From an uncultured bacterium (GTDB lineage Bacteria > Verrucomicrobiota > Kiritimatiellia > RFP12 > UBA1067): a stretch of DNA of 64,000 bases. Made by a program: the position numbers and the translations under genes. Position 1 is the stretch's first letter. Each line of letters starts with the position of its first letter. The notes beneath the pieces are model-generated. The model did no database searches, was not told the DNA's origin, and saw only the letters and a list, made by a program, of their open reading frames with translations. The DNA lies in contig CACWSW010000002.1 in assembly GCA_902763655.1 (NCBI GenBank), positions 10,519 to 74,518 of the forward strand. Reading direction: 5' to 3'. Below are positions 4,375 through 24,939 of this stretch, piece after piece.

Positions 4375-4790
4375 TGAGCCGACGCAGCAGACGCGGCGCG
4401 CGCACGGGCGTCGGGAAGGCGTCGATCGACATGAACTCGCTGATCGACCTCACCTTCCTCCTGCTCGTCACGTTCATCCTAACCATCCCCGCGCTGGAGC
4501 AGGGCATCACGATAATGCTTCCGCGCGCGAAGACCGACCTTCTGCCGAACAAGAACAACAAGGCGAACACCATCACGCTCGACGTCAACCACAAGCTTTT
4601 CCTAAACGACGTGCCCACCACGCTGGACGAGCTTGAGAACACGCTGAAGGAGAAGGTGGCGCTGGACCCGGACGTGCCCGTGCTGGTGCGGGGCGACGAG
4701 CGGCTGGAATACGGAGAGGTGATGGACGTGGTGAAGGTCGTCTACAAGTGCCAGGTCCGCAAGATGGCGTTGGTGACGGTGGAGAAGTAG
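4374..4790 (+). CDS. exbD: ExbD/TolR biopolymer transport protein
   Basis: TGATG overlap with the exbB stop. Contains the N-terminal TM segment LIDLTFLLLVTFILT and the periplasmic domain VLVRGDERLEYGEVMDVVKVV. Confidence 0.85.
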   Translation: MSRRSRRGARTGVGKASIDMNSLIDLTFLLLVTFILTIPALEQGITIMLPRAKTDLLPNKNNKANTITLDVNHKLFLNDVPTTLDELENTLKEKVALDPDVPVLVRGDERLEYGEVMDVVKVVYKCQVRKMALVTVEK

Positions 4791-4796: not shown

Positions 4797-5645
4797 ATGC
4801 AACTGGGAACGTACATGGAGAGGCAGAGGGGAACCGAGAGCGTGCTGAACGCGCGCGCTCTGGGCTATGCCTTGGCCGTGCACCTGGCGCTATTCGTCTT
4901 CTTCTGGGGGATGGCCAAGTTCGCGTTCCGCAGGCCGGACGTGGTGATCCCCATCGACATGACGATCGTCCCCCCGTGGGCGGAGCAGACGGACGATCCC
5001 GATCCCGACCCCAACCCTCCGCCGAAGCCCGAGGAGGCGAAACCGGAGCCGAAGCCGCAAGTGAAGGAGCCGGAGCCGAAGATCGAGCAGCCCAAGGTTG
5101 ATGCCGTCGAGCAGGTGAAGGAGAAGCCCAAGCCCAAAGAGAAGCCAAACCTGCGCGAAAAGGCGAAGCTAATCAAGACGCCGCCGAAGCCGAAGGAGAA
5201 GCTCGACCTGCGCAAGAACGCGAAGAAGATTGACGCGCCGCCCATGAAGAAGACAGGCAAGGCCACCGCCCACGACAAGCCGCTTTCGCCGGAGGAATTC
5301 ATGCGGAAGATGAACGAGGGCTACCGCATCGGCGCGCGTAACCAGCTCGCCACTAGCGAGGAGCAACGGTGTGTGAGCCTCATAGCGCAGGCGATCAAGC
5401 GAGAGTGGAACAAGGAATCGTTCAAGTGGTATCCCGGCCTCAAGCCGCTCCAAGTATCACTCAAGCTAGGGCCAGGCGGCAGCGTGCGCGGCTTCACCAT
5501 CCTCGTCGGCAGCGGCGATGCGGACGTGGATCGCACCGCGCGCAGCGCGCTCAACCGTCTCAAGTCCATCCCAGGCCTTTCCGCCACCTTCCTCGAAAAC
5601 TTCCCCGAGATCGCGCTACTCATGGAGCCGACCCAGGGCGAGTAA
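4797..5645 (+). CDS. tonB: TonB-like energy transducer (TM anchor, Pro/Lys/Glu-rich spacer, C-terminal domain)
   Basis: TM segment LGYALAVHLALFVFFWG. Spacer PDPDPNPPPKPEEAKPEPKPQVKEPEPK. Compact C-terminal domain. Sits third after exbB and exbD. A TolA-like role is not excluded. Confidence 0.65.
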   Translation: MQLGTYMERQRGTESVLNARALGYALAVHLALFVFFWGMAKFAFRRPDVVIPIDMTIVPPWAEQTDDPDPDPNPPPKPEEAKPEPKPQVKEPEPKIEQPKVDAVEQVKEKPKPKEKPNLREKAKLIKTPPKPKEKLDLRKNAKKIDAPPMKKTGKATAHDKPLSPEEFMRKMNEGYRIGARNQLATSEEQRCVSLIAQAIKREWNKESFKWYPGLKPLQVSLKLGPGGSVRGFTILVGSGDADVDRTARSALNRLKSIPGLSATFLENFPEIALLMEPTQGE

Positions 5646-5676: not shown

Positions 5677-7059
5677 ATGCTGCTGACAAGACGATCCTTC
5701 ATCGAAACATCCGCCGGGACCGCCGCCGCGTTAGCGGTGCCGGGATGCGCCACCGCCGCGCTGGACGCAGCGGCGCCCGTGGAGATCCTTACGAAGACGC
5801 ACTTTGCAAAACCTGGCTCTAAGCTCCGCATGGGCTTCATCGGCTCCGGCGGGCGTGGCGGCGCGAACCTCAACGAGTTCTTCAACCTAGGCGAGGAGAT
5901 CGTGGCGCTGTGCGACGTGGACGCCACCCGCCTAGACGCCGCCGCGAAGAAGGTCGCCTCTCGTTGTCCGAAGGCCCGCCGCTACCGCGACTGGCGCGAC
6001 ATGCTCGACAAGGAGAAGGACCTCGACGCCGTGGTCGTCTCCACGCCCGACCACATGCACGCCGCCGCCGCCATCGCCGCCATGAAGCGCGGCCTGCACG
6101 TCTACGTGGAGAAGCCGCTCGTGCGCACCTTCTTCGAGGCCGAGCGGTTCCGCAAGGTTGCGGAGGCTTGCGGCGTAGTCACGCAGATGGGCAACAACGG
6201 CAACGGCACCGACGGACAGCGCCGCAACATCGAGATACTCCAGAGCGGCGTCCTCGGCGAAGTCTCGGAGATCCACGTCACCACCGACCGTCCCATCTGG
6301 CCGCAGGCGATCAACCGCCCCGAGGGGAGCGACACCATTCCCGACACCTTCGACTGGAACCTCTGGCTAGGCGTCGCTCCGAAACGCCCCTTCAAGAAGA
6401 ACGTCTACCATGCCTTCAAGTGGCGCGGCTGGTTCGACTTCGGCACCGGCGCGATGGGAGACATCGCGTGCCACGCCATGAGTTTCTTCTGGCGCGGGCT
6501 CGCGCTCGAGCGCGTCGTCTCCGTGGAGACGATCCAGTCGACGCCGAAGTTCTCCGAGACGTACCCCGCCGCGACGACCGTCAAGCTCGTCGTCACCTCG
6601 GCCCGCCAGAAGAAGCCGGTCGAGATATACTGGTACGACGGCAAGACCGGTCCCGCGGAGGCGACGGCCCGACGCCTGACAGACGGCGTGATGTCTTCCC
6701 TCGGCGGCACCACGGTCGTCGGCGCGAACGGCATCCTGCGCGGCGGCACGCTGATGATGAAGGGCGAGCGCAAGTTCATCCGCTGGCAGGACCATCCCGC
6801 CACGCGCGAGCTGCCCGTCACGCTCCCGCGAGTGAAGAACCACCACTGGGAATTCGCCGAGGCGGTGCGCGGCGGCGCGAAGCCGTTCTCGCACATCGAC
6901 CATTCCGTGCCGCTCACGGAGGCAGTCCTCCTCGGCTGCATCTCGCAGCGCGTGGCCGGCAAGCTCGACTGGGACGCCGCCAAGGGCCGCTTCTCAAACA
7001 GCGACGAGGCCAACGCCCTTCTCGCGCCATATGTCCGTCCCGGCTGGGAAATCGGCTGA
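5677..7059 (+). CDS. Tat-signal Gfo/Idh/MocA family oxidoreductase
   Basis: Twin-arginine leader MLLTRRSFIETSAGTAAALAVPG. Rossmann segment LRMGFIGSGGRGGANL. STPDHMHAAAAIAAMKRGLHVYVEKPL is the family signature region. AAGGAGA RBS. Confidence 0.85.
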   Translation: MLLTRRSFIETSAGTAAALAVPGCATAALDAAAPVEILTKTHFAKPGSKLRMGFIGSGGRGGANLNEFFNLGEEIVALCDVDATRLDAAAKKVASRCPKARRYRDWRDMLDKEKDLDAVVVSTPDHMHAAAAIAAMKRGLHVYVEKPLVRTFFEAERFRKVAEACGVVTQMGNNGNGTDGQRRNIEILQSGVLGEVSEIHVTTDRPIWPQAINRPEGSDTIPDTFDWNLWLGVAPKRPFKKNVYHAFKWRGWFDFGTGAMGDIACHAMSFFWRGLALERVVSVETIQSTPKFSETYPAATTVKLVVTSARQKKPVEIYWYDGKTGPAEATARRLTDGVMSSLGGTTVVGANGILRGGTLMMKGERKFIRWQDHPATRELPVTLPRVKNHHWEFAEAVRGGAKPFSHIDHSVPLTEAVLLGCISQRVAGKLDWDAAKGRFSNSDEANALLAPYVRPGWEIG

Positions 7060-7083: not shown

Positions 7084-9755
7084 ATGGGAATGCGCAGGTC
7101 TGTGCTCACTATCGGCTTTCTTGCTTTTTGCTGTGCAACCGGTCTGATGGCCGAGACGCCCGACAAGTTCATCCGCTACGTGGAGGCCACGGGCCAGCAG
7201 GCGGTTGACACGGGCATCGTCGGCCGGTACGGCATGAGGGCCGAGATGCAGGTGGAGTGGATGGCCGTGGGCGGCGACACCGCGTTCCTCGACGCGCGCG
7301 GCGACGACGGGACGTCCGAAAACAACACGCGCATCATGTTCTGTCACAACGGCGGGGAGGCGCCGATTGGCGTGGCGTACGGGGCGTTCCAATACGGCAA
7401 GTATGGCGGCGCCACCTGCAAATGGGAGAAAGACCGGATCTACAGCATGACGACCGATCTCACGGTGACGAACGCCACAGAGGTTTTGTGCCAGTCGTGG
7501 GTGGACGGCATCCAGTTGTGGAACGAGGTGAAGTCTGGACTGATCGACACGGGCTACAATCTCTACATCTTCGCCTGCAACCTGCACGGCGATACGGTGT
7601 ACCATTCCAAGTCCCGTTGCTACTGGTTGAAGATCTGGCAGGACGACGCGAACGGGGTCCGCCATCTGGTACGCGACTTCCGACCCTGCCTGAAGGACGG
7701 GCGCGTGGGCCTGTACGACGCCGTCTCCGAGACGATCTTCTACTCCTTCACGGGGACGGATCTCGCCTACGACATGAACGACGACGTGCCGGACGACATG
7801 GCGACACCTACGTGGATACCGGCGTGATCGGGCGTTCCGGAACAAGTTGCGAGGCGGACATGGAATGGCTGGCGCTCGGCGGCGACTATGCGTTCCTGGA
7901 CGTGCGCGGCACATACGGCGCAGACGATCGTATCATGCTGATCCACAGCCATCTATCGAAGATGAGCTTGGGGTACGGAGTCTTTCAGGGCAACACGACG
8001 GCTCATCAATATTCGCTCGGAACGCGGTATCTTGTCGCAAGTGACCTGCGCGCTGGCAGCCAGACGCTCGTCGTGAACGGCGAAACGGTCTACTCAGGGA
8101 CTTCGTCCGCCACCTTCGACACGGGGCGCAACCTCTATCTCTTCGCCAATAACCGCGCCGGATCCGTGGAAAACTATTGCAGCGCGCGGCTCTACGGATT
8201 GAAGATCTGGCAGGACGGCACGCTCGTGCGCGACCTCCGGCCCTGCCGCAAGCGCGGCGTGCCGGCGCTCTACGACGACGTGGAGAAAGTCATCCTCTAT
8301 CCGAAGCAGAAGAAACTGACATGTCCGAACCTTTGGACGGCGGAGGGGCGGCCCGACTACTTCGTCGAGTACCTTCGAGGGAACGGCACCGTCTGCCTCG
8401 ACACGGGCGTGCGGGGACGCGCCGGTACGCGTGCGACGGGCGAGTATGCATGGACGCAGATGCGTACCGCCTGGCAAGAGCAGAGCGTGTACCTGGAGAA
8501 CATCTACTCGCGTCAGGAGCGTTGCTATCTCGGATCGGTGGGTGGCGATAACCGTTTCTACATGGTGCACGAGAACAGCACGGCCACCTGGTCGGGCTAC
8601 GGCTTGCAGCGCATCTATCCGGAACGCATCACGACCAACCTCGTGGAGGAGGTTGTCACGAACCTCGACGAGACAGTCACGACCAACATGGTGGAGGTCG
8701 TGTCCACGAACAGGATCCTGTTGGCGGCCGGGCATAAGTATGCGTTCGACGTCTCGTACGATGCCGGTTCGCAGACGATCGATCTGGACGGCGAGCGGAT
8801 CATGGAAAAGGACAGTGCGGCAGCCGTCGATTCAGGTTGCAATCTCTATCTCTTCGCCGTGAACGGCAACGGGAGTCCTGTCTACGAATCGCCGGCGCGC
8901 TGCTACTCGCTGAAGCTGTGGCAGGACGGGACGCTCGTGCGCGACTTCAAGCCGTGCGTGAAGGACGGGAAGGGGATGCTGTGGGACGAGGTCTCTCAGA
9001 CGCTCTTCCGCCCGATCCCCGACATCCCGGCGACGGACGCCAACACGGGCGAATTCCGCGGTTTCGGCGAGGTGGAGCCGGTTGCGTTCCTGGAATACGT
9101 GGAGACGGACAGGAAGCAGTACGTCGACACGGAGATCGTCGGACGCTCCGGCACGACTGCCGAGTTCGAGATGGCGTGGACGGCGGCCGGTGCCGACGAG
9201 TCCTTCCTCGGCTTGCGCGACACGTCCAAGGCGGACAGCCTCAGCCGTTTCTACTTCTGGCAGAAGAACAGCACGGCAACGCTCGCCTCGGCCATCTACT
9301 ACGGCTACGGCTACACGAAATATCTCATAGCAGACGCGCCGGATCAAGTTGGCAGCAACCAGAGCGCGAACTTGATACCCGTGACAGCCGGGCAGGTCTA
9401 CCACGTGCGCTCGTCGCTGAACACAGACTCGCAGACGATCGAGGTGGACGGCACGACGCTCCTGAACCGCACGGAACCGGCCACGATCAGCTCGGACCTC
9501 CATCTCTACCTGTTCGCCCTCAACTACGGCGGAACCGCGCAGTATTTCGGGCGCACGCGCTTCTACTGGCTGAAGATCTGGCAGGACGGGCAGCTTGTGC
9601 GCAACTTCCGTCCCATCCTGCTCGAAAGCGGCCTTGCCGCGCTGTGGGATTCGGTGAGCAAGCAGGTGTTCCTGCCGAGCGCGCCGTTCAGCGCGATGGG
9701 GCCGGTCAGCGGCGATTTCGAGATCAAGAGCGGCACGACGATCATCATTCGGTAG
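7084..9755 (+). pseudogene. Secreted four-module repeat protein (cassette 1), split by a frameshift at ~7796
   Basis: Track ORFs 7084..7827 and 7257..9755 (real from ~7797) together parallel the intact paralog 13946..16723. Relative to that paralog, 22 nt (GTTCGTGGACTACGTCGAGGCC, encoding FVDYVEA) are missing after 7796. Signal peptide MGMRRSVLTIGFLAFCCATGLMA. The downstream part could restart at GTG 7824, which overlaps stop 7825-7827. Confidence 0.6.
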
Positions 9756-9772
9756 TTTTTTGATCTGACGAA

Positions 9773-12700
9773 ATGAACGTTTCGCGTAGATGGTTTATCG
9801 GCGGGATGGCCGCCTCGATGGGTTCTGCGCGCGTCCTGCGCGCGGCGCCCGGGCTGCTTTCGGGCGGCACGCCGAACCTCGTGCTCGGCATCGTCACGGA
9901 CATCCATCTCTCGATCGGCCGCTCGAACGGCGCGTTCGTGTTCGGCGGGGAGGCGACGTTCCGCAGTACGCTGGAGTGGTTCCGCGACAGGGGCGTGGAC
10001 GGAGTCGTGATCTGCGGGGACATGGCCGACAACGGGCTGGTTGAGGAACTTGCGGCCGTGGCGCGGGTGTGGTACGAGGTGTTCCCGAACGACCTCGCGC
10101 CGGACGGACACCGCGTCGAGCGCCTGTTCGTCTACGGCAACCACGACTACGATGGCTACACGTACGGCACCGCGCGGAACCTGTTCGGCGACGATGCCTA
10201 CGACCACTCCATCAACAAGGACCTCGCCGCGGCCTGGCAGAGCTGCTTCAACGAGGCGTACGCGCCGGTGTGGCGCAAGGAAGTGAAAGGCTACTCGTTC
10301 GTGGGCGCGCACTGGATCGCGGACCATTGCCGCGGGTGGAATGAAATCGGCGTGCCGCAGATGCCGGACTGGTTCGCCGCGAACGGCGCGTCGCTCGATC
10401 CGTCCAAGCCGTTCTTCTACATCCAGCATCCGCCGCCCAGGGACACATGCCACTGCGACTGGGTGTGGGGGCACGACAACGGCGCCTCCACGGCCGCGCT
10501 CTCGCCCTACCCGAACGCGGTGGCGCTTTCGGGGCACTCGCACGCGTCGCTCAATGACGAGCGCGCGATCTGGCAGGGCGCGTTCACCTCGATCGGCGCC
10601 GCCTCGCTGAAGTACATCGGGCTGGAATATGGCGACGTTGCGCCGTTCGGGCGCGAGAACGACCTGCCCATCTCATCCCAGCGCGGCGAAGACCCCTACA
10701 AGGTCATGCAGAAGATGCCCGGTGGCGACAGGGACGGGCACCAGGGTCTCCTCGCGCGCGTCTTCGACGACCGCATCGCGTTCGAGCGCGTCGACTGCGC
10801 GGACTTCACGAGCCTGGGCGACGACTGGGTGGTGCCCATGCCGCTCGCGGAGCCGCCGCCGTTCGCCTACGCGGCGCGGGCGGCGGCAAGCCTCGTTCCC
10901 GAGTTTCCGGACGGCGCCGCGCTCCAGGTTCGCCTGACGACGGGCACAAACCGCGGCGGAGGCAGCGTGCAGGCCGTCGAGCAGTCCGTCCTCGAGGTGA
11001 CCATCCCGGCGGCTCTCCGCGCCGGCTGCGGAAGGGCGCTCGACTACGCGCTGAAGATCACCGACGGCACGGGCATCCGCGACGACCGGTACGTGTTCGC
11101 GGCGAAGTTCTTCCGTTCGACCGCGAGCGGCGCGGCGAACGTTCCGACCGTCTGCAAGCTCCCGGTCAGCCGCCTGAGCGCGTCGGGGCCGATCCACATC
11201 GAGGTGACGCCGCGCAACAGCTTCGGCCGTGCGGGCGCGCCGATCTCAACGGACTTCGAGCTCCCCGCCGTTCCCTTCAGGTACGTGGAGTACGTGGAAT
11301 CGACGGGCACGCAGTACGTCAACACGGGCATCAGGGGCCGGTGCAACACGAGCGCGGACATGCGCATCAAGTGCCTCAGCGCCAACGACGTCTCCTTCCT
11401 CAGCTCGCGCACGGACAGCAACAACACGCGCTTTCTCCTGTGCAGCACGCTGCCCCAATACTACATGGGGCACCGCTCGTACACGGCGTCGAGGGACAGG
11501 TCCAGCCTCTCGTGCCTCACCGACACGGAATCCGACCACGTCGTCAGCAGCATCACCCACGACGGCACGAACGTCTCCTATTCGATGTCGGTCAACGGCA
11601 CGACGATCATCGACCAGACGCGCGCGGAAGAGGCGTTGGACACGGGCCTCAACATGTACCTCTTCGCGCAGAACAAGGGCGGCTCGGCGACGCTCCATTC
11701 CAAGGTCCGGTGCTACGGCGTGAAGATCTGGCAGGACGGCGCGCTCGTGCGCGACTTCAGGCCCTGCGTGAGGGGCGGCAAGGCGGGGCTGTTCGACGAG
11801 GTGTCGAGGAGCTTCTTCTTCGCGTATGGCGGCGACCTGCTTCCGCCCGTCGAGACGCCGGACGCCTTCGTGCAGTACGTGGAGTCCAACGGCACGCAGT
11901 ACGTGGACACCGGCATCAAGGGCCGGTGCAACACGAAGGCGGACATGACCCTGCGGCTGATGAAGGTGGCCGACACGACCTTCCTCGGCGCGCGCAACGA
12001 CAACGGCAACACGCGCTTCCTCCTGTGCCACGGCAACAGCCAGGGCCTGGTCTGCACCGGGCACGTCTCGTTCGACTGGGGAGACAAGTATCTCTCCACC
12101 AGCCACCCCGACCGCCTCGTCGGCAGCATCATGCACGACGGGACGCAGGTGACGATTTCGGCGACGCTCAACGGCCAGACATCCGTTTCCACAAGCCGGG
12201 AGCAGGCGGCGCTCGACACGGGGCTCAACATGTACATGTTCGCGGCGAACATGTCGGGGACAGCGACCTACAGAGCCTCAATTCGCTGCTACGCCACCCG
12301 CATTTGGCAGGACGGCGTCCTCGTGCGGGACTTCTGGCCGTGCGTGAAAGGCGGCATCGCCGGACTGTACGACAAGGTCTCGGGCCGGATCTTCCAGCCG
12401 GGCAGTGGCGCGCTTGTCGCCGGTCCCGTCACCGCGCGGAAGGCGGAGGTCGCCAAGTTCGTCCCGTACGTTGAATCGACGGGCGCGCAGTTCGTCGACA
12501 CCGGCGTGATGGGTCGGGCCGGAACGCGTTGCGAGGCGGCGTTCGGCATGACGGAGGTGGCAGGCGACGGCAACTACGGCGTCCTTTCCATGCGGCACAA
12601 TACCAACTACCAGTATGGCGACACGTACAGATGGTTCGACCTGCTGAGCGTGTACAACGGAAAGTTGGACTGCCAGTACGGAACGTGGCGCGACAACAGC

Positions 12701-13084
12701 GCGCTGGTTCTTTCGGCGGGTCGTGTCCTCACGGCGGCGAGCAAGCTCTGGGAGGGAAGCCAGGAATTTGCCGTGGACGGCGAACGGATCCGGAGCGCGT
12801 CCAACGCCCATGCGTACGACATGGGATTCAGCCTCTACGCCTTCGGGCGAAACCGCGACTACAGCGCGACGGACGTGAATTTCAGCCGGCTCCGACTCTA
12901 CTCGATGAAGATCTGGCAGGGCGAGGCGGACGGATCGAACGAGGCGCTCGTGCGCGACTTCAAGCCGTGCATGACGGCCGACGGCGAGGCGGGCCTTTAC
13001 GACGAGGTGTCCGGCATGGTGTACGTCTCCGCCAGCGGAACCAGCCTGCTGCCGTCGGGCGGCCTGACGGTCAAGATCCGCTGA
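9773..13084 (+). CDS. Tat-signal calcineurin-like metallophosphoesterase fused to three copies of the repeat module (cassette 1)
   Basis: Tat leader MNVSRRWFIGGMAASMGSARVLRAAPG. MPE motifs: GIVTDIHLS, VVICGDMADNG, VYGNHDY, GAHW, LSGHSHASLND. After a beta-rich linker come modules starting FRYVEYVESTGTQYVNTG, FVQYVESNGTQYVDTG and FVPYVESTGAQFVDTG. Each module ends in a KIWQ(D/G)...LVRDF.PC motif. Confidence 0.8.
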   Translation: MNVSRRWFIGGMAASMGSARVLRAAPGLLSGGTPNLVLGIVTDIHLSIGRSNGAFVFGGEATFRSTLEWFRDRGVDGVVICGDMADNGLVEELAAVARVWYEVFPNDLAPDGHRVERLFVYGNHDYDGYTYGTARNLFGDDAYDHSINKDLAAAWQSCFNEAYAPVWRKEVKGYSFVGAHWIADHCRGWNEIGVPQMPDWFAANGASLDPSKPFFYIQHPPPRDTCHCDWVWGHDNGASTAALSPYPNAVALSGHSHASLNDERAIWQGAFTSIGAASLKYIGLEYGDVAPFGRENDLPISSQRGEDPYKVMQKMPGGDRDGHQGLLARVFDDRIAFERVDCADFTSLGDDWVVPMPLAEPPPFAYAARAAASLVPEFPDGAALQVRLTTGTNRGGGSVQAVEQSVLEVTIPAALRAGCGRALDYALKITDGTGIRDDRYVFAAKFFRSTASGAANVPTVCKLPVSRLSASGPIHIEVTPRNSFGRAGAPISTDFELPAVPFRYVEYVESTGTQYVNTGIRGRCNTSADMRIKCLSANDVSFLSSRTDSNNTRFLLCSTLPQYYMGHRSYTASRDRSSLSCLTDTESDHVVSSITHDGTNVSYSMSVNGTTIIDQTRAEEALDTGLNMYLFAQNKGGSATLHSKVRCYGVKIWQDGALVRDFRPCVRGGKAGLFDEVSRSFFFAYGGDLLPPVETPDAFVQYVESNGTQYVDTGIKGRCNTKADMTLRLMKVADTTFLGARNDNGNTRFLLCHGNSQGLVCTGHVSFDWGDKYLSTSHPDRLVGSIMHDGTQVTISATLNGQTSVSTSREQAALDTGLNMYMFAANMSGTATYRASIRCYATRIWQDGVLVRDFWPCVKGGIAGLYDKVSGRIFQPGSGALVAGPVTARKAEVAKFVPYVESTGAQFVDTGVMGRAGTRCEAAFGMTEVAGDGNYGVLSMRHNTNYQYGDTYRWFDLLSVYNGKLDCQYGTWRDNSALVLSAGRVLTAASKLWEGSQEFAVDGERIRSASNAHAYDMGFSLYAFGRNRDYSATDVNFSRLRLYSMKIWQGEADGSNEALVRDFKPCMTADGEAGLYDEVSGMVYVSASGTSLLPSGGLTVKIR

Positions 13085-13101
13085 TGGTTTAGGATTGCTG
13101 C

Positions 13102-13130
13102 TTGACGGGGGCAACCGTGTGATGTATAAT
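13102..13130 (+). promoter_or_regulatory. Sigma70-type promoter of the toxin-antitoxin pair (-35 TTGACG, 17 nt, -10 TATAAT)
   Basis: TTGACG at 13102-13107 and TATAAT at 13125-13130. AAAGGTGA RBS. ATG at 13164. Confidence 0.6.
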
Positions 13131-13163
13131 TTGAATCACTTTGAACTAGAAAGGTGATTCATC

Positions 13164-13415
13164 ATGACGACCTTTACAATCCATACCGACGAGAAGATGG
13201 CGGATGCCATCCGCCAGGGTGCGGCCGAGGCTGGCAAGAGCATCAACAAGTTCATCCAGGATGCCCTTGGCGGGGCGCTCGGTCTTTTCAAGCGCAAAGA
13301 ACGCCCGTTGCCGGACTTCTTCGACATAGGTACGCCATTGTCGAAGGAAGCCGCTGACGAATTACGGTCGGTACAGAAAGAATTTGACGTGATTGATGAG
13401 GAGATGTGGAAATGA
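13164..13415 (+). CDS. Antitoxin (small RHH/VapB-like DNA-binding protein)
   Basis: 83 aa with an acidic C-terminus. Its stop overlaps the toxin start (ATGA at 13412-13415). It sits immediately upstream of a PIN-domain gene. Confidence 0.7.
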   Translation: MTTFTIHTDEKMADAIRQGAAEAGKSINKFIQDALGGALGLFKRKERPLPDFFDIGTPLSKEAADELRSVQKEFDVIDEEMWK

Positions 13416-13816
13416 CGCAAGTTGTCTTTGACACGAATTTGCTCATCAATCTGTTGTCTGGTAAATTCAAGTTACCGGAATCATTTCGCAAATATGATCG
13501 CATTCTGATACCGGCGATTGTCATCGGCGAATATCAGGCTGGCATATTCGATACGCGGCCAGGGCGGGAGAACGCGGCGAAACTCGTAGAATACCTTGGG
13601 CGTCTGACGGTTGAAGCCGTTCCCGTCACAACCAGGACAGCGGAAAAGTATGCATTGATATTCAAGGCACTCCGCGCGCAGGGGCATCCGATTCCGCAGA
13701 ACGACATGTGGATTGCTGCCTCCGCACTTGAAAACGGTGCTGACTTGGCGACAACGGACGGGCACTTCCACTTCATCCCGATGTTGACCGTCATCGTCCC
13801 CGGTGCCGACACGTGA
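13412..13816 (+). CDS. vapC: PIN-domain ribonuclease toxin (VapC family)
   Basis: The real start is ATG 13412; the track start 13406 is GTG. VVFDTNLLI provides the first acidic Asp, IVIGEY the Glu, and ATTDGHF the C-terminal Asp. This is the typical PIN layout. Confidence 0.8.
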   Translation: MTQVVFDTNLLINLLSGKFKLPESFRKYDRILIPAIVIGEYQAGIFDTRPGRENAAKLVEYLGRLTVEAVPVTTRTAEKYALIFKALRAQGHPIPQNDMWIAASALENGADLATTDGHFHFIPMLTVIVPGADT

Positions 13817-13832
13817 TTCTCGCGTGACAAAT

Positions 13833-13849
13833 GAAAACGAGCCGTTTTC
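13833..13849 (+). terminator. Weak hairpin after vapC (GAAAACG-AGC-CGTTTTC)
   Basis: 7-bp stem with a 3-nt loop. The T-run is part of the stem rather than trailing it. Confidence 0.25.
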
Positions 13850-13945
13850 GCCCGCTTGCGGAATGGGGGGGAATTATGGTATCATATCGCCAACCTTGGA
13901 AAAGGTATGGCGGCATGATGTCTTGCCATTCAAGAGGAGGAGACG

Positions 13946-16723
13946 ATGAAAACGAGCAAAATGTGTGTTTTAGGAGGCGTGTTCGCGGTTTGTCTGGCGG
14001 CGAGCGCGGAGACGCCCGACAGGTTCATCCGCTACGCGGAGGCGACGGGCGCGCAAGCCGTGGACGTGGGCGTGCGCGGACGGTACGGGACGAAGATGGA
14101 GGCAGAGATCGAGTGGATGGCGCTTGCCGACATGTCGATCCTCGACGCGCGCACGGACGCGGATACGGACAGCCGCGTCTACTTCGCGCACAGCGGCGGC
14201 ACCGGTCAGATCGGGGTGGGTTACGGCAAGTACTACACGACCTTCCGCGGCTCGGGCGGCGAGAGACGCAACTGCACCTGGGAACTCGGGCGCACGTACA
14301 AGGTGGAGACGGATTTCGCCGTGACGAACGAGATCGTGACGACGCAAAACGTCGTGACGAACCTCGTCGAGAATCCGGAGACCGGCGAGACCGACGAGGT
14401 GGAGGAGACGGTGACGACGGAAACGACGAACGTCATTTGCAAGGCCTCCTGCAAGGTTGACGGGCTTACCCTCAGCCTCGGGCAGGGCTTCTTCGACCTG
14501 ATCGACACGGGAGCCAATTTCTACATGTTCGCCTGCAACATTCAGGGGACGCCGAACTGGATGGCGAAGGCGCGATGCTACGGGATGAAGATCTGGCAGG
14601 ACGATGCGAACGGCGTCCGCCAGCTCGTGCGCGACTTCCGCCCGTGCATGAAGAACGGGCGCGTGGGCCTGTACGATTACGTCTCTCAGACGATCTTCTA
14701 CTCCATCACGGGCACGGACCTCGTCTATGACGCGAACGAGGATGTGCCGGACGAGTTCGTGGACTACGTCGAGGCCCACGGCAACACCTACGTGGACACG
14801 GAAGTGATCGGCCGTTCGGGGACGAGCTGCGAGGCGGACATGGAATGGCTGAAGCTTGGCACCGCCAACGTTGACGACTATGGATTTCTGGACGTGCGCG
14901 GCACGCGTGACGGCACTGACCGTTTCTTCCTGATCCACAGCTATATCAGCAGGATGAACGTCGGATACGGTACGTTTCTTAACAACGTGAGCGGCGCCCG
15001 TCAGTTTTCCGTCAATACGCGTTACACGATCACAAGCGATCTACGCGCGGGCAGCCAGACGCTCGTCGTGAACGGCGAGACGGTCTATTCGGCCACTGAT
15101 TCCGCCGACTACGACACGGGGCGCAACCTCTACCTCTTCGGCAACAACCGAGGGGGCGCCGTGGAAAACCGATGCAGCGCGCGGCTCTACGGACTGAAGA
15201 TCTGGCAGGACGGCGTGCTTGTGCGCGATTTCCGTCCCTGCCGCAAACATGGCATCCCGGCACTCTACGACGACGTGGAAAAGCGCATCTTCTACGCCGA
15301 GCAGTCGCAGCTTACAGCGCCCTTCGATCCCACGGTGGCGGGCAGGCCCGATTATTTAACGGAGTACTTGCAGGCGAACGGCAACAATTACCTCGACACG
15401 TGCGTGCAGGGACGCGCCGGCACGCGCGCGGCGGGTGAATTCTCCTGGACGCAGATGCGGGTTATGCCAGATGAGCAGAACTGCTATCTGGAGAATGCGA
15501 TTTCACGGCACGAACGGACCTACCTCGGTGCGGTGAACGGCGACGACCGGTTCTATCTTCTGCACGATGCCGGTGCGCAGATCTGGTCGGGGTACGGTAC
15601 GCAGAGACTCTATCCCGAGCGGCATGTGACGAACTACGTGGAGACCGTGACGACGAACCTTGACGAGACGGTCACGACCAATTTGGCGGAGGTGGTGTCG
15701 ACGAACCACATTATCATGGCGGCCGGGCGCAGGTATGCGTTCGACGTCTCGTACGCCGCCGGTTCGCAGACGGTCGACCTGGACGGCGAGCGGATATTGA
15801 ATGCGGCCAGTACGGCGTCCATCGACACCGGCTGCAACCTCTACCTTTTCGCCGTGAACGACAACGGACACCCCAAATACGAGTCTCTCGCACGTTGCTA
15901 CGGGCTGAAGATCTGGCAGGACGGGACGCTCGTGCGCGACTTCAAGCCATGCGTGAAGGACGGGAAGGGGATGCTGTGGGACGAGGTCACGCAGACGCTC
16001 TATCGTCCGTTCCTCCCCGTTCCGGCGACGTTGGAAAACGTGGGCGCGATTGTCTCTGTCGGCGACGCGAAGCCCGTCTCGTACCTGGAATACATCGAGA
16101 CCGACGGCACGCAGTACATCGACACGGAGATCGTCGGGCGCGACGGCACGGCGGCCGAGTTCGAGATGGCGTGGCTGGTGTCGAGCGGCGACGAGTCGTT
16201 CCTGGGTTCGCGGACAAGCGGCAGCACCGACAGCCGGTTCTTCTTCTGGCAGAAGAACTACGGGTTTTTCTACTACGGCTACAATACCGTCTGGTATCCC
16301 GACAAAACCGACCCGACGAAGACCGTCCTCAACACGAGCGCAAACAAAATCCCGGTGGTGCCCGGACAGACGTACCACGTCAACGCCTCGTTCGCGGCCG
16401 GAGCGCAGAGGATCACGATAGACGGCAATCTCGCCGTGAGCTGCAGCGCTTCAAGTGCCGTCGCCTCGGTGCAACCCCTGTACCTCTTCGCCGCTAACTT
16501 CGGTGGAACGCCGCAGTTCTTCGGCAAGTGCCGGTTCCGCTGGCTGAAGATATGGCAGGACGGCGAACTCGTCCGCAACTTCCGTCCTGTCTTGCTCGAC
16601 AGCGGCTTTGCCGCGCTGTGGGACTCGGTGAGCGAACGGGTGTTCTGGCCGAACGCGCCGTTCAGCGCCATCGGCCCTGTCACCCGCAAGTTCAACAGCA
16701 ACACGGTGATCACGGTGCGGTAG
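13946..16723 (+). CDS. Secreted four-module repeat protein (cassette 2, intact paralog of 7084..9755)
   Basis: GAGGAGGAG RBS. Signal peptide MKTSKMCVLGGVFAVCLAASA followed by ETPD. Four modules start at FIRYAEATGAQAVDVG, FVDYVEAHGNTYVDTE, PDYLTEYLQANGNNYLDTC and VSYLEYIETDGTQYIDTE. Each module ends in KIWQDG.LVR(D/N)F.P. Confidence 0.8.
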   Translation: MKTSKMCVLGGVFAVCLAASAETPDRFIRYAEATGAQAVDVGVRGRYGTKMEAEIEWMALADMSILDARTDADTDSRVYFAHSGGTGQIGVGYGKYYTTFRGSGGERRNCTWELGRTYKVETDFAVTNEIVTTQNVVTNLVENPETGETDEVEETVTTETTNVICKASCKVDGLTLSLGQGFFDLIDTGANFYMFACNIQGTPNWMAKARCYGMKIWQDDANGVRQLVRDFRPCMKNGRVGLYDYVSQTIFYSITGTDLVYDANEDVPDEFVDYVEAHGNTYVDTEVIGRSGTSCEADMEWLKLGTANVDDYGFLDVRGTRDGTDRFFLIHSYISRMNVGYGTFLNNVSGARQFSVNTRYTITSDLRAGSQTLVVNGETVYSATDSADYDTGRNLYLFGNNRGGAVENRCSARLYGLKIWQDGVLVRDFRPCRKHGIPALYDDVEKRIFYAEQSQLTAPFDPTVAGRPDYLTEYLQANGNNYLDTCVQGRAGTRAAGEFSWTQMRVMPDEQNCYLENAISRHERTYLGAVNGDDRFYLLHDAGAQIWSGYGTQRLYPERHVTNYVETVTTNLDETVTTNLAEVVSTNHIIMAAGRRYAFDVSYAAGSQTVDLDGERILNAASTASIDTGCNLYLFAVNDNGHPKYESLARCYGLKIWQDGTLVRDFKPCVKDGKGMLWDEVTQTLYRPFLPVPATLENVGAIVSVGDAKPVSYLEYIETDGTQYIDTEIVGRDGTAAEFEMAWLVSSGDESFLGSRTSGSTDSRFFFWQKNYGFFYYGYNTVWYPDKTDPTKTVLNTSANKIPVVPGQTYHVNASFAAGAQRITIDGNLAVSCSASSAVASVQPLYLFAANFGGTPQFFGKCRFRWLKIWQDGELVRNFRPVLLDSGFAALWDSVSERVFWPNAPFSAIGPVTRKFNSNTVITVR

Positions 16724-16791
16724 TTATGGAGAGCCGCCATCTTGGCGGCGCACGATGAGAAATTATGGAGAGCCGCCATCTTGGCGGCTCA
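16724..16791. repeat. 39-nt-period direct repeat carrying the hairpin AGCCGCCATCTTGGCGGC
   Basis: TTATGGAGAGCCGCCATCTTGGCGGC occurs at 16724-16749 and 16763-16788. The core is a 7-bp stem (GCCGCCA / TGGCGGC) with a TCT loop. The identical 18-mer recurs inside dnaX at 37048-37065. Confidence 0.85.
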
Positions 16792-18500
16792 TGAAGGAGC
16801 AAGATGATGAAGATCAACAGAAGGCAATTCATCGGGGGAATGGCGGCGGCCGGGACGGTGCCGGGCGCGTGGCGCGGGTCGGGCTCGTCACCGACACGCA
16901 CGTCGGCACGACGATGGAGAGCTGCGCGCGCGTGCGTGCCGCGCTGGAGCTGTTCAAGAAGAAAGGCGTTGAGATGGTGGTGAACTGCGGCGACATCGCC
17001 GACCGCCACTACCCCGACGGCTACCGCTACTACCGCAAGACCGTGAACGAAGTCTATCCCGATCCCGCGTCGCGTCCGATTGAGCGGTTCGTCTACGCCT
17101 TCCACGACGTGTGCGACTACCGTCCCGGCAGCGGCTGGAACGTGGCGCGCGACGCGGCGCCGGCGTTCGCGGACGTCCATCGTCTCCTGGAGGCGCCGAA
17201 CACGCACACCGACTCGCTCGAGTGGAAGGGAATGGCGTTCCTCAACTTCCCGCAGTCGACCGGCATGAAGGGCTTTCTCTCGTGGGACGACTACGAAGCG
17301 GCCGTGCGCCGAGCGTGCGAGACGCATCCCGGCAAGCCTGTCTTCGTGTTCGACCACCTGCCGCCAGCCGGCACCACGTTCCACAGCCGCCAGTGGGGCA
17401 GCGACGCCTGCCGCCGCGTGCTGAACAAGTATCCGCAGGTGGTGTCCATCTCCGGACACGTGCACGGCTCGCTCGCGAGCGAGCGTCAGATCTGGCAGGG
17501 CGAGTTCACGGCGGTGAACGTGGGGTGCCTCCAGACGTGGGGCGGGTTCGCGCCCGGCTCCACGCCGCCGCCGCAGGCGAAGCAGAACTTCGGCGCGCTC
17601 GTGATGGACATCTATTCGGACCGCCTCGTGTTCTACCGCTGCGACGTGCGCGACGGCTCGGAGTTCGGCGCGCCGTGGGTGGTGCCCCTGCCGTTCGCGG
17701 CGCAGTCCGCGCCGTTCGTGCCGGCGCGCGCCGCCGCGCGCGTGGAGCGCCTGCCCGCGTTCGGGGCGGACGCGGCGGTCGCCGTGACGCCGGTCAGCGG
17801 CGGCTATGCCGTGGAGTTTCCAGAGGCGACGGTCCCCGACCCGTTCATGTACCGCATCCGCTGCGAGCGGAAGGGCGCGTCCGGCGCATGGGAGGCCTTC
17901 TCGGAAGACGACATCTTCAGCGAGTTCTGGAAGGCGAAGGCCGACCGTACGGGCAAGGCGCGCCACGTGCTCGCGAGCGGCTTCTTCACGCCGGGCGCGA
18001 CGTACCGCGTCTCGGTGGCGCCGCTCGACTACTTCTACCGCGCCTCGCGCGCGATCGAGTCCACGTTCACGGCCTCGCACGCCGCCGAGACGGTATGGAC
18101 GCTCGACGATCCGATGCACGCGCTGCGCTTCACCGAGCATGGCAATCCGGTGGGCCTCACCGCGGGCGGGCGTTTCGCGCCGCCGAGCGGGCAGGGCACG
18201 CTGTGGCTCCCCGATGGCGCGCTCGCTAAGCTCAAGCCGGGCGCGCGCCACCAGCTCGTCGTAGACCTCGACGCCGTGCAGCCGGACGGCGAGTGGTGCG
18301 CGTGGCGAATCGGCCTGCACGCGCGCGAGGGTGCGAAGCTCGGCGGCGACATCCAGACCGTGCCCGGCGCGCCGGGGACGCTGCGGTACGTCTTTGCGTT
18401 CACCGTGCCGGCCGGCGGTCTCGACAGCGCCAAGCTCGTGTTCAACTACGTGAGCCCAGGGGCGAGCCTCCGCATCGAACGCTGCGTGGTTTTAACCTAA
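16755..18500 (+). CDS. Calcineurin-like metallophosphoesterase with FN3-like and beta-sandwich C-terminal domains (cassette 2); 5-prime end uncertain or frameshifted
   Basis: MPE motifs: GLVTDTHVG, VVNCGDIADRH, FVFDHLPP, ISGHVHGSLASE. It is paralogous to the N-terminal half of 9773..13084. A complete Tat leader MMKINRRQFIGGMAAAGTVPGA starts at ATG 16804 but lies in the +1 frame. An in-frame GTG at 16869 is the alternative start. Confidence 0.75.
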   Translation: MRNYGEPPSWRLMKEQDDEDQQKAIHRGNGGGRDGAGRVARVGLVTDTHVGTTMESCARVRAALELFKKKGVEMVVNCGDIADRHYPDGYRYYRKTVNEVYPDPASRPIERFVYAFHDVCDYRPGSGWNVARDAAPAFADVHRLLEAPNTHTDSLEWKGMAFLNFPQSTGMKGFLSWDDYEAAVRRACETHPGKPVFVFDHLPPAGTTFHSRQWGSDACRRVLNKYPQVVSISGHVHGSLASERQIWQGEFTAVNVGCLQTWGGFAPGSTPPPQAKQNFGALVMDIYSDRLVFYRCDVRDGSEFGAPWVVPLPFAAQSAPFVPARAAARVERLPAFGADAAVAVTPVSGGYAVEFPEATVPDPFMYRIRCERKGASGAWEAFSEDDIFSEFWKAKADRTGKARHVLASGFFTPGATYRVSVAPLDYFYRASRAIESTFTASHAAETVWTLDDPMHALRFTEHGNPVGLTAGGRFAPPSGQGTLWLPDGALAKLKPGARHQLVVDLDAVQPDGEWCAWRIGLHAREGAKLGGDIQTVPGAPGTLRYVFAFTVPAGGLDSAKLVFNYVSPGASLRIERCVVLT

Positions 18501-18597: not shown

Positions 18598-21500
18598 ATG
18601 AAAGGTCATCTTATTGGAATCGTCTGTGGACTGATCGCCGCAACAGCGTTTTCGGCCACGCCGGACGCCGCCGCCGTGCGACGGGCGAAGGAGCAGCTGG
18701 CGCTATTCAAGCCCGATGCCGCGCGCCGCGCGATGGCCGACCTGAAGTCCAACCCGAAGTACAACTGGGCGAAGCACAACGCCGCCGTGGAGGCCTTGAT
18801 CGCGAAACGCGAATTCGTGCAGACCGCCCTCGCCGGCAAGGACGTCGCGAAGCAGGCGGAGGCCGTCGCGCTCGTAGAGGCGTACCGCGCCGCGATGCTC
18901 GCGAACCCGGTCCTCGACTTCGACAAGATCCTCTGCGTCCACCGAAAGATCGGCAACCCGCGCGGCGCGTTCGGCGGGCGTGGCAGCGGCATGACCGGCC
19001 TCAACGCCGAGAACCACATGGTCGCGCCGCGCACCGGTTTCCCGAACGAGATCGTCGTCCTCTCCAACCTGCGCGGCACGCCCACGTACACGGAGATATA
19101 CAAGCCCGCCGACGGCACGTCCGTGGTGCGCGACCTCGACCTCGACTTCGATGCCTCCCGCATCCTCTTCACGCAGTACAAGGGCACGAACAACCTCTTC
19201 GGCGTGTACGAGATTTTGGTGAAAGATGAAAGTCGAAAGGTGAAAGGTGAGGAGGGCGCGGCAGACGCCAACCCACACCTTTCACCTTTCACCCTTCACC
19301 CTTCACCGCCGACGTTGGTCTCGCCGGAAGACGGCCACTACGACATCCAGTGGTGGGACGGCTGCTACCTGCCCAACAAGGACCAGGTGGTGATGCTCGG
19401 CACGGCCGCCTTCCAGTTCCTGCCGTGCGAGGACGGCAACATGCCGATGGCCGTCCTCTACCGCATCGACCGCAAGACCGGCGAGGTGCGCCAGCTCACC
19501 TACGAGCAGGACAGCGACTACACGCCGAACATCACGCACGACGGGCGCATTCTCTACACGCGCTGGGAATACTCCGACCAGCCCCACTACTGGAGCCGCG
19601 TGCTCATGACGATGAACCCCGACGGCATCGGCCAGCTCTCCGTGTGGGGCTCGAACTCCTTCGTGCCCACGTTCTTCTACTGCGCCCGTTCCGTCCCGGG
19701 CGACCCGCACCTCCTCACCATGATCGGCGGCGGCCACCACGACCGCGCCGAGGTCGGCCGCTTCTTCCAGGTCGACCCCACCCTCGCGCGCGCCTATCCC
19801 TTCAAGTACGACCCGCCAGACCGCGAGTGGGGTCCGCCCAAGCACACGCTCCGCATCCCCACGAAGGTGTTCCCGAAGGAGAAGACCGGCCTCGTGCACG
19901 AGTTCCCCGGCTTCGGCAAGGACGTGGAGGGCGACATGGCCGACCCCTACACGATGAACCAGTTCGCGCGCGGCAAGTACTACTTCTCCCACCCGTGGCC
20001 GCTCGACGCCAAGTACAACCTCGCCACCGTCAAGGCCGCGCCCGACGCGCTCATGGGCCTCTACCTCGTGGACGTGTTCGACAACGTCACGCGCATCGCC
20101 GAGGCCGACGACGGCCTGCTCGTGGAGGCGATCCCGTTCGTGCCGCGCAAGCGCCCGCCGATCATCCCCGACCGCTCGGTGAAGGGCGCCACAACATGCT
20201 CCGTGCACGTTGCCGACATCTACAACGGCCCCGGCCTCGCTGGCATCCCGCGTGGGACGGTCAAGAAGCTCCGCCTCTTCTCCTACCACTACAACTACCA
20301 CAACGTGGGCGGACACTCCTCCACCGGCTGGATCGGCTACAGGAAGTCGCCCTACAACGAGCGAGTGGAGTCCGGCTGGGACATCAAGCGCATCCTCGGC
20401 ACCGTGGACATCGAGGCCGACGGCTCCTGCTGCTTCGAGATGCCCGCGAACACGCCGATATCACTCCAGCCGCTCGACGAGAAGGGACAGGCCGTCCAGC
20501 TGATGCGCTCGTGGGTTGTGGGCATGCCCGGCGAGCGCGTCTCGTGCACCGGCTGCCACGAGGACAACCGCACTTCCATCCACACCAAGCGCACGATCGC
20601 CGACGAGAAGTACTTCAAGGGCCAGATGCAGAAGATCAAGCCGACCGACACCGACGGCCTCCGTCCGTGGGGCTTCGCCGCCGAGATGTGGCCCGTCGTG
20701 CGCAAGAACTGCTTCTCCTGCCACGGCGACCCTGCCAAGGCCCCGCTCGCCAAGGCCGACCAGGGCGGCGCGAAGGAAGTGAAGGTGGACATCTTCACGA
20801 AGTACGAGCTCTCCGGCAAGCGCCTCGTGATGGACACGCCCGAGAACGCCTACCGGATGCTGCACCCGTACATCCGCCGCCCCGGTCCAGAGAGCGAGGA
20901 GACGCTTCTCCCGCAGATGGACTACCACGCCTCGACAAGCCCGCTCGTGCAGATGCTCCGCAAGGGTCACAAGGGAATAAAGCTCGCCGACGCCGAGTGG
21001 ATGAAGATCTACGAGTGGATCGACCTCAACGCGCCCTTCATCGGCAAGTGGAATCCGCCGGAGATCAAGGGCGACAAGTGGGTGAACGCATGCGTGCCCA
21101 GCCAGGTGGAGCGCCGCCTCGAGCTGCAGAAGCGCTACGCCAACGTCCCCGACAACCCGGAGGCGGAGTACGACAGGTATTGGGCGATCGTGAGCAACAG
21201 ACTGGAGAAGTTAAGTGGCCCTTCGGGCCTAAGTGCGCCTTCGGCGCTAAGTGCTGCTTCGCAGCTAAATGAACTTAGTCGCGAAGCGACACATAGGGGC
21301 GCAGCCCCACTTAAGGCCGAAGGCCCACTTAATCACTTAACCCTCCAGGGCTGGCCGATGAACGTGCTGCAATCCGCCGACGCGCAACTCGGCCGCATCG
21401 ACGAGATCACGCCCGTCAACACGAAGACGCTGATCCTCGGCGCGGGCCAGTCGCTCACCTTCCGCCGCATCCCCGCCGGCGCGTTCGTGATGGGCAGCTC

Positions 21501-24852: not shown

Positions 24853-24874
24853 TATGGCCTCTCTATTCGGCAAG

Positions 24875-24883
24875 AGTATATCA
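24875..24883 (-). promoter_or_regulatory. Extended -10 element TGATATACT for 22264..24852
   Basis: The complement of AGTATATCA reads TGATATACT. It lies 22 nt upstream of ATG 24852, with a purine-rich RBS in between. Confidence 0.4.
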
Positions 24884-24921
24884 AAAGTTGGCGACGGCAC
24901 ATGGCGGAAACGGCACGGATT

Positions 24922-24930: not shown

Positions 24931-24939
24931 CTTTCCCGC

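Follow-up and report, generated by a model that had tools for sequence, protein, structure and literature searches.

A candidate capture-and-cleavage locus for phosphate-bearing glycans: LamG-like tandem-module proteins encoded next to metallophosphoesterases in an uncultured Kiritimatiellae bacterium

Two pairs of adjacent genes, each made of a gene for a protein built of tandem modules and a gene for a metallophosphoesterase, can be found between positions 7084 and 18500 of a 64,000-nucleotide (nt) stretch of contig CACWSW010000002.1, the whole of which was analyzed and is hereafter called the window. Genes 1 and 3 encode the module proteins and genes 2 and 4 the phosphoesterases, all four on the forward strand. 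Together they probably form a locus for the capture of a phosphate-bearing carbohydrate or glycoconjugate and for the cleavage of its phosphoesters. This reading is preferred because module genes precede exported phosphoesterases and often lie near glycoside hydrolases and sugar-type regulators. The locus is best explained as part of a chromosomal nutrient-acquisition region of a rumen or gut Kiritimatiellae bacterium, in which two old paralogous gene pairs have been kept. The Kiritimatiellae are abundant in rumen and gut communities, are mostly uncultured, and their substrates are poorly known.

Module architecture and predicted fold

Genes 1, 2 and 3 encode eleven homologous modules of 174-236 amino acids (aa), arranged 4+3+4 as had been anticipated in the original prediction, which was made from the sequence of the window alone; their pairwise identity is 30-74%. 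The motifs by which the module had then been defined hold as a consensus and not as strict patterns, the start motif being found in 3, NLYLF in 7, KIWQDG in 6 and GLYDxV in 5 of the 11 copies. The module had been left without a named family, and indeed no Pfam, NCBIfam or PHROG model reaches its threshold; genes 2, 3 and 4 yielded nothing significant when scanned against NCBIfam and PHROGs. Compared with solved structures, a profile built from 47 modules makes weak contact with the laminin and Gas6 LG domains. The Pfam model Laminin_G_3 (PF13385) stays below its cut-off of 27.6 bits, with 21.6 bits for the best whole protein (gene 3) and 18.7 bits for the best single module, and is reported at E<=1 in only 5 of the 47 modules. 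No published literature on the motif was found.

The AlphaFold model of the second module of gene 3, calculated from the 47-module alignment, is all-beta and confident (predicted local distance difference test, pLDDT, 95.1; predicted template-modeling score, pTM, 0.91). In a Foldseek search of the PDB, 4DQA comes first (probability 1.0, E 2.3e-05, template-modeling score, TM, 0.66 on the query). Further matches, for which the probability also reaches 1.0, include the LG domains of neurexin, laminin and SHBG, the pentraxins, the sialidase CBM40 and fungal galectins (TM about 0.4-0.6, 8-16% identity), and PL7 alginate lyases are among the weaker ones (rank 49-50). Predicted viral structures (BFVD) are closer than anything in the PDB, with TM 0.74-0.80, a root-mean-square deviation of about 3 Å and 15-21% identity; the closest are uncharacterized gut-virome proteins, one of them annotated as a GDSL esterase and others as ConA-like. 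By its modeled fold, the module is placed in the concanavalin A-like/LamG superfamily, and the earlier guess of a LamG-type, lectin-like jelly roll was right at that level. Within the superfamily it is a separate family, outside Laminin_G_3 by the threshold of that model, and a high-probability assignment to a characterized family was looked for without any being found.

Same-position modules of genes 1 and 3 (M1-M1 to M4-M4) form the closest pairs, with 57-74% identity, which argues that the four-module layout predates the duplication. The intact 895-aa orthologue of gene 1 in sister contigs (L156/L157) is colinear with gene 3 at 59% aa identity. That the two cassettes are paralogous at the DNA level was found to be true of these module genes (about 66-76% nt identity) and not of the phosphoesterases, which share 31% aa identity and differ in their C-terminal regions. 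Judged by sequence, the description as a tandemly duplicated cassette fits the module genes and is loose for the enzymes, which are distant paralogues. In the module-3 copies, a single mismatch in 75 nt separates the segments 8919-8993 and 15914-15988, exactly as had been noted. This 74/75 identity includes synonymous sites, against 66-76% in the rest of the two genes, and the segment encodes the best-conserved motif, WQDGTLVRDFKPCVKDGKGMLWDEV, which suggests either local gene conversion or an unusually strong constraint. Loop inserts of V-T-T-N-x-x-E-like mini-repeats (e.g., TNYVETVTTNLDETVTTNLAEVVSTN) lie at about 14310-14440, 15620-15700 and 8640-8720. They are found in module 3 of both paralogues and of distant homologues, and a longer one is present in module 1 of gene 3, not in that of gene 1; Tandem Repeats Finder detected no DNA-level tandem repeat behind them.

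Linkage to phosphoesterases in related genomes

The neighborhood of module genes was compared over 79 species-level loci, in which 48 blocks of module genes have at least 4 kb of sequence downstream. Neighbor positions were taken from tblastn, and a Metallophos domain was counted when it starts within 4 kb or is fused; the count includes divergent Metallophos queries beside GH5 and NAGPA, domains that a hidden Markov model from the gene 2/gene 4 lineage fails to reach. A Metallophos domain is present within 4 kb downstream, or fused, in 22 of the 48 blocks. Measured by length, 22 Metallophos starts fall in the 204 kb that lie 0-4 kb downstream as against 4 in the 637 kb of other flank zones, a concentration of about 17-fold, and the domains immediately downstream lie on the same strand as the module genes. 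The linkage of module and Metallophos is thus real but partial, strong without being universal. The original prediction had staked itself on a linkage conserved in other genomes, and it is there that the 22 of 48 loci, with fusions in both orders, were found.

At least four phosphoesterase lineages take part. Two are represented in the window, the gene 2 type, which is often followed by GH127, and the gene 4 type. A GH5-linked type has its genes after GH5, the enzyme being joined either to Exo_endo_phos or to GH5 itself. In yet another type, the fusion partner is NAGPA, the family of phosphodiester glycosidases. Fusions of module and enzyme occur in lineages related to gene 2 as well as to gene 4. 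Because the enzyme lineages and the fusion orders vary, module and enzyme appear to have been associated repeatedly. In at least 11 loci, the module gene is followed by GH5 and then by a fusion of Metallophos and Exo_endo_phos. Other locus types harbor a GH5-Metallophos fusion, a NAGPA + Metallophos fusion, or a module gene followed by a phosphoesterase and GH127 (examples of the variant types are given in Table 1). The layout of the window itself also recurs: in L001, with a module protein 59% identical, the whole double cassette is repeated, toxin-antitoxin pair included, and in L006 and L010 two tandem module genes precede a gene 4-type enzyme.

In 20 of 50 blocks, a XylR-like regulator (Peripla_BP_3 + HTH_AraC) lies no more than 3 kb upstream, mostly in divergent orientation, and GH129 and GH2 also occur near module genes. 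An extracellular glycan-related role had been proposed for the locus. The glycan part of the proposal gains from these regulators, from GH5, GH127, GH129 and GH2 and from the NAGPA-Metallophos fusion, all of them in other genomes, rather than from the neighbors that had been cited for it. The neighboring FAD oxidoreductase lies about 17 kb off, at 35.6 kb, and lends no support to a glycan role; no NagA-like gene turned up among the scanned open reading frames (ORFs) of the window, a few having been left out of the scan. The third cited neighbor, a Gfo/Idh/MocA gene with a signal for twin-arginine translocation (Tat), is present directly upstream of gene 1. No published literature on Kiritimatiellae with a metallophosphoesterase was found.

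The two phosphoesterases

Genes 2 and 4 had been taken to encode calcineurin-like enzymes, and both ORFs (9773-13084 and 16755-18500) exceed the cut-off of 21.5 bits of Pfam Metallophos (PF00149; scores in Table 1). Gene 2 has all five motifs intact (DIH, GD, GNHD, H and GHSH). Its enzyme was modeled by AlphaFold with a pLDDT of 88.7, and the model matches Rv0805, GpdQ, the purple acid phosphatases and Lmo2642, from which a resemblance to the binuclear phosphodiesterase/phosphatase-type members is predicted; a sequence search of solved structures with the same domain gave nothing relevant. The gene 2 domain shares the fold, the Metallophos match and the five motifs with Rv0805, GpdQ and the purple acid phosphatases, but differs from them by an identity of 11-17%, large insertions, an Ig-like domain, a Tat-type leader and the appended modules. 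In gene 4, motif III reads AFHD (VYAFHD) instead of GNHD, and the other four motifs are present. The form A[FW]HD is conserved in gene 4 orthologues (63-98% identical) and sets the gene 4 type apart from class III phosphodiesterase-type enzymes, whereas more distant module-fused relatives keep GNHD.

Twin-arginine motifs are visible in both proteins, SRRWFIGGMAAS in gene 2 and NRRQFIGGMAAAG in gene 4, and the consensus of the homologue alignment reads RRxF; for gene 2, the Pfam model TAT_signal was not reported at E<=1. As had been described, gene 2 is read in frame with its leader MNVSRRWFIGGMAAS, and the enzyme body of gene 4 is in another frame than the leader MMKINRRQFIGGMAAAG at 16804. 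Homologues of the gene 2 enzyme include Bacteroidaceae proteins of about 807 aa and fusions to GH2, SASA, GDSL and other domains. The idea that this phosphoesterase family generally resides in glycan loci was rejected, as the two Bacteroidaceae genes examined sit beside housekeeping-type genes.

Distribution, fusion partners and viral occurrence of the module

Hundreds of homologues of the four-module protein can be found, all of them hypothetical proteins, every named one being from the Kiritimatiellae; among the best 120, 117 have four modules. The matched GTDB species genomes are Kiritimatiellae-type metagenome-assembled genomes from rumen and gut (goat, sheep, roe deer, cattle and human), often with several copies each. 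When protein words were searched with the module profile, only short hypothetical proteins were returned, the named ones almost all from Kiritimatiellae. A profile scan of 1.84 billion cluster representatives retrieved 21,822 proteins at E<=0.001 and 11,558 at E<=1e-10, with 2 to 13 modules each; at 50% identity, the family thus counts at least 21,822 cluster representatives. Across all proteins, the module copy number ranges from 1 to 13. Fusions to Metallophos have the enzyme either N-terminal (gene 2, P0222) or after the modules (P0252), and the gene 2-type fusion recurs in P0121-P0128, L001 and L064. Other partners are Peptidase_C10 (P0234, P0245) and PATR repeats; no fusion to a glycoside hydrolase was found among those recovered.

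The module is also common on viral DNA. A degenerate DNA pattern for the N-terminal motif (Y-[VI]-E-[ST]-x-G-T-Q-Y-I-D-T-G) was found in 67 IMG/VR contigs with a GC content of 27 to 62%, and each of the 67 encodes modules that match the profile, up to six in one array. In L106, a phrog_3558 tail protein (E 6.5e-122) has the module as its C-terminus, and in L104 it accompanies a minor-tail-protein region. Four IMG/VR contigs with 32-36% GC (L105, L111, L136 and L096) encode four to six tandem modules, some of the genes lying side by side; because such low-GC viral contigs encode them too, multi-module arrays are not restricted to the Kiritimatiellae. Among 50,697 cultured-phage records, neither a window module nor a viral module had a tblastn match.

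Module proteins end in a conserved tail composed of G-x-x, three or four hydrophobic residues and a terminal Arg or Lys. This tail can be found in 117 of 120 four-module homologues, in 10 of 14 enzyme-module fusions and in 2 of 87 module-less enzyme homologues. Over the Kiritimatiellae loci, it is present in 50 of 85 module ORFs vs 21 of 432 other large ORFs, the latter including a LamG_3/PKD protein and a GH5 protein. It has no match among curated C-terminal sorting models and may be a lineage-specific sorting tag.

Proposed role and alternative readings

In the proposed mechanism, each pair would supply a Sec-exported protein consisting only of four tandem beta-sandwich modules and, encoded after it, a Tat-exported binuclear metallophosphoesterase, the putative enzyme of the first pair itself carrying an Ig-like domain and three further modules. 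The modules would be non-catalytic ligand-binding units, most likely for glycan. Such an accessory binding role is suggested because their copy number varies, because they occur with unrelated enzymes and phage tail proteins, and because their fold is of the lectin type. Where they are attached to the enzyme, their role would resemble that of carbohydrate-binding modules (CBMs), and the four-module protein could be a multivalent capture or presentation partner of the enzyme encoded next door. The substrate would most likely be a carbohydrate polymer or a glycoconjugate with phosphate esters. As far as can be read from the leaders, the Sec and Tat signals would indicate export across the inner membrane only, and the data agree equally well with a role at the surface and with one in the periplasm that follows TonB-dependent uptake.

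Several points weigh against capture and phosphoester cleavage as the role of the locus. In about half of the informative loci, a phosphoesterase is missing from the vicinity, and 16 of the 48 blocks are without any hydrolase type searched for; moreover, the loci are related by descent, and the counts given above are not counts of independent events. The gene 4 type lacks the metal-ligand Asn of motif III, the sequence of which suggests an altered metal site or a pseudo-enzyme. The Bacteroidaceae homologues lie in non-glycan neighborhoods, so that the enzyme family overall is not glycan-specific. Finally, concanavalin A-like folds also include enzymes, such as the PL7 lyases, and protein- or steroid-binding domains.

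A bolder version of the same reading can be formulated, which is rather doubtful. The module would then be a new carbohydrate-binding family for phosphodiester-bridged glycoconjugates, such as teichoic acids, microbial phosphoglycans or plant glycosyl-inositol-phosphoceramides; with dedicated phosphoesterases (Metallophos, Exo_endo_phos and NAGPA fusions) and with GH5 and GH127, it would define an undescribed type of utilization locus for phosphorylated glycans in uncultured Kiritimatiellae of rumen and gut; the C-terminal G-x-x-hydrophobic-R tail would be a new tag by which the proteins are routed; and phages would have borrowed the module to recognize polymers of this kind on their hosts.

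An unlikely alternative is that the multi-module proteins are surface adhesins or coat proteins, which bind host, microbial or particle surfaces and take no part in the breakdown of a substrate, the phosphoesterase neighbors reflecting inherited order or phosphate scavenging. Proteins made of modules only, with several paralogues per genome, would suit an adhesin, as would the presence of the module on PATR (autotransporter-passenger repeat) proteins and on phage tail proteins, a conserved C-terminal tail that suggests surface sorting, and the 16 of 48 loci without the searched hydrolase types. An adhesin does not, however, account for the concentration of phosphoesterases just downstream and on the same strand (22 in 204 kb vs 4 in 637 kb), for the involvement of several unrelated phosphoesterase lineages with fusions in both orders, or for the sugar-responsive XylR-like regulators and glycoside hydrolases that recur alongside.

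That the modules are themselves enzymes, either concanavalin A-like glucanases or lyases or relatives of the DUF1080 3-keto-glycoside hydrolases, so that genes 1 and 3 would encode tandem multi-catalytic proteins, is considered improbable. In favor of catalysis, many charged and polar residues are near-invariant (D14, R56, N131, R143, Y145, R157 and D172 in module numbering), and the weaker structural matches include the PL7 alginate lyases mentioned above. PF06439 (3-keto-disaccharide hydrolase) was matched by 1 of the 47 modules, at E 0.067, and DUF1080 3-keto-glycoside hydrolases work with Gfo/Idh/MocA dehydrogenases, a Tat-exported relative of which is encoded directly upstream of gene 1. 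The best structural matches, however, are non-catalytic binding domains, and a copy number varying from 1 to 13, on unrelated enzymes and phage tails, is typical of binding modules rather than of catalytic domains. Only a few other loci (L006, L045 and L060), furthermore, have a relative of the Gfo/Idh/MocA gene close to a module gene.

A degenerate prophage or mobile-element remnant, decaying and non-functional, with tail-fiber-derived modules and the toxin-antitoxin pair as the marker of a mobile element, would explain the frequency of the module on viral contigs and tail proteins, the VapBC pair in the middle and the two frame-broken genes of the window, and is nevertheless highly improbable given a GC content like that of the rest of the window, a synteny kept across the Kiritimatiellae with module proteins down to 59% identity, a four-module architecture in 117 of 120 homologues, four intact genes in sister strains and the absence of phage or mobility genes from the Pfam matches of the window and the related loci. 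Prophage origin was rejected on this last ground, no phage genes having been seen around the cassette.

Comparison with known systems

The first match in the PDB, 4DQA, is the LamG3/ConA-like domain of BACOVA_03559, a putative carbohydrate-binding protein encoded by a polysaccharide utilization locus (PUL) of Bacteroides ovatus (PMC11216935). Like the module as it is understood here, this domain is a beta-sandwich without catalytic function, and the protein that carries it is secreted and encoded in a glycan-utilization locus (PMC11216935). Unlike the module, with which it shares 12% identity, it stands alone behind a DUF1735 spacer and comes from a SusC/SusD locus, whereas the window system combines four tandem modules with a phosphoesterase partner and no SusC/SusD. 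The Pfam matches of the scanned window genes and of the annotated related loci include no SusC or SusD family, and because none was seen, the window locus is placed outside the Bacteroidota-type PULs.

The two-sheet jelly-roll fold is common to the module, Laminin_G_3, the eukaryotic LamG/LNS domains (neurexin, laminin alpha and SHBG) and the pentraxins. The weak profile match to Laminin_G_3/LamG runs over the strands ...VDG...LY.G/F..., and the module is distinguished by motifs of its own, YVE..G.QY.DTG, NLYLFA.N, KIWQDG.LVRDF.PC and GLYD.V. The CBM40 domains of Streptococcus pneumoniae NanA and R. gnavus NanH are likewise beta-sandwiches (TM about 0.55-0.57) and accessory to a hydrolase, but they are 10-14% identical to the module and differ from it in copy number and tandem layout, and no sialidase context was seen. 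By analogy, the window system may be likened to surface glycan-binding and multi-CBM proteins, which are secreted, consist of binding domains only and are encoded beside the enzymes they serve, under a sugar-responsive regulator; it differs in lineage (Kiritimatiellae), domain family and partner enzymes, and no lipoprotein signal was seen. With the LamG-like receptor-binding domains of phage tail proteins, the comparison is that the module family occurs, with full-length profile matches, on uncultivated viral contigs, the C-terminus of the phrog_3558 tail protein included, whereas the module genes of the bacterium have no phage context.

What is new here is the family, which is large and uncurated, and the composition of its locus in an uncultured lineage; the fold and the underlying logic are familiar. 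A fold can now be assigned to a family found together with phosphoesterases and glycoside hydrolases under regulators of the sugar type. If its modules do bind phosphate-bearing glycans, it would be a new family of binding modules, it would mark a degradation route for teichoic acids or phosphoglycans beyond the known utilization loci, and the modules of phage tails would point to the receptors of those phages. The family merits a curated model, by which thousands of hypothetical proteins would gain an annotation at the level of the fold, and it is a good lead for a new kind of binding module and for phospho-glycan turnover in the rumen.

Frame breaks and sister contigs

Three independently assembled contigs (L156-L158), 98-99% identical to the window, display the same gene order with all four genes intact, gene 1 encoding 895 aa and gene 4 encoding 571 aa with the in-frame leader MQINRRQFIGGMAAAGTVPLFGVPASGRVARVGLVTDTHVG. 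Only three indels set the window apart from them over 14.7 kb. The first, a 22-nt deletion at 7797 (ATACGTGGAGTACGTGGAGGCC), visible against gene 3 as well as against the near-identical contigs (L156), interrupts gene 1 where module 1 joins module 2. The first frame ends at 7827, module 2 is consequently without its start motif, and modules 2 to 4 with the C-terminal tail are read in the frame of ORF 7257-9755; what had been described as a single ORF at 7084-9755 is therefore two frames. A second 22-nt deletion, at 16862 (CGCTCTTTGGCGTGCCCGCGAG), splits the Tat leader of gene 4 from the enzyme body, and the third indel is an in-frame 6-nt insertion in gene 2, at 10718. In the window, genes 2 and 3 alone are thus intact. 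The two deletions of equal length are either real alleles, in the sense of pseudogenization, or an assembly artefact. An assembly chimera as the origin of the duplication was rejected, since L001 and L156-L158 carry the same double cassette.

Layout of the window

Table 1. Features of the window and example loci from related genomes.
Feature	Position (nt)	Strand	Basis
ExbB	3646-4374	+	Pfam MotA_ExbB, E 8.5e-28
ExbD	4374-4790	+	Pfam ExbD, E 1.1e-21
TonB/TolA-like gene	4797-5645	+	TonB_2/TolA matches, weak
Gfo/Idh/MocA oxidoreductase with twin-arginine leader	5677-7059	+	Pfam GFO_IDH_MocA, E 5.6e-18; TAT_signal, E 0.0028
Gene 1, 5' part: Sec-type leader (MGMRRSVLTIGFLAFCCATGLMA, followed by ETPDKF), module 1 (7168-7773)	7084-7827	+	Translation; alignment with gene 3
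Gene 1, 3' part, other frame: module 2 (7800-8321), module 3 (8361-9032), module 4 (9087-9692), tail SGTTIIIR (9732-9755)	7800-9755	+	
Gene 2 (1103 aa): twin-arginine-type leader (9773-9847), metallophosphoesterase domain (to about 10867)	9773-13084	+	Pfam Metallophos, 39.1 bits
Gene 2, rest: Ig-like beta domain (about 10868-11272), modules 11282-11842, 11867-12418 and 12458-13051, tail GGLTVKIR (13061-13084)			
VapB-like ribbon-helix-helix (RHH) antitoxin	13164-13415	+	Pfam RHH_1, E 0.002
VapC-like PIN toxin	13406-13816	+	Pfam PIN, E 8.7e-14
Gene 3 (925 aa, intact): Sec-type leader (MKTSKMCVLGGVFAVCLAASA, followed by ETPDRF), modules 14024-14731, 14756-15316, 15356-16027 and 16082-16666, tail SNTVITVR (16700-16723)	13946-16723	+	
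25-nt element TATGGAGAGCCGCCATCTTGGCGGC between genes 3 and 4, two copies (16725 and 16764, 39 nt apart)	16725-16788	+	
Gene 4: metallophosphoesterase, C-terminal region of ~240 aa without family, no modules	16804-18500	+	Body in ORF 16755-18500; Pfam Metallophos, 35.0 bits
Large gene: HZS_alpha middle domain, C-terminal FGE-sulfatase domain	18598-22263	+	Pfam
Large gene: HZS_alpha middle domain, PD40 repeat	22264-25647	-	Pfam
Secretin gene (1188 aa), PilM-like gene, several unassigned genes	44321-51883	-	Type II secretion or type IV pilus-like cluster
Example loci of variant types, related genomes	L032 12634-16430; L027 12710-15613; L073 17203-20592; L012 12673-16270		

Upstream of the cassettes, the order ExbB-ExbD-TonB/TolA-like gene is also kept in the sister contigs L156 and L157. 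A VapBC-type pair had been placed between the two cassettes and was found there as an RHH antitoxin and a PIN toxin, the genes of which overlap by 10 nt (13406-13415) as a type II VapBC pair. It occupies the equivalent position in L001 and L156-L158, and in L054 such a pair adjoins a module gene. Downstream, the two large genes with an HZS_alpha domain are convergent; a relative of the one at 18598-22263 adjoins a module gene in L004/L016 (one record), and weaker relatives can be found near module genes in L055, L060 and L064. Past about 26 kb, the window harbors mainly housekeeping genes and the secretin/PilM cluster, through which the module proteins could be exported.

Each copy of the TATGGAGAGCCGCCATCTTGGCGGC element between genes 3 and 4 holds a hairpin with a 7-bp stem (GCCGCCA-TCT-TGGCGGC). 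The two exact matches, against 0 expected, are the only ones in the window, and the element is also present in the sister contig L156; it is possibly a terminator or an attenuator.

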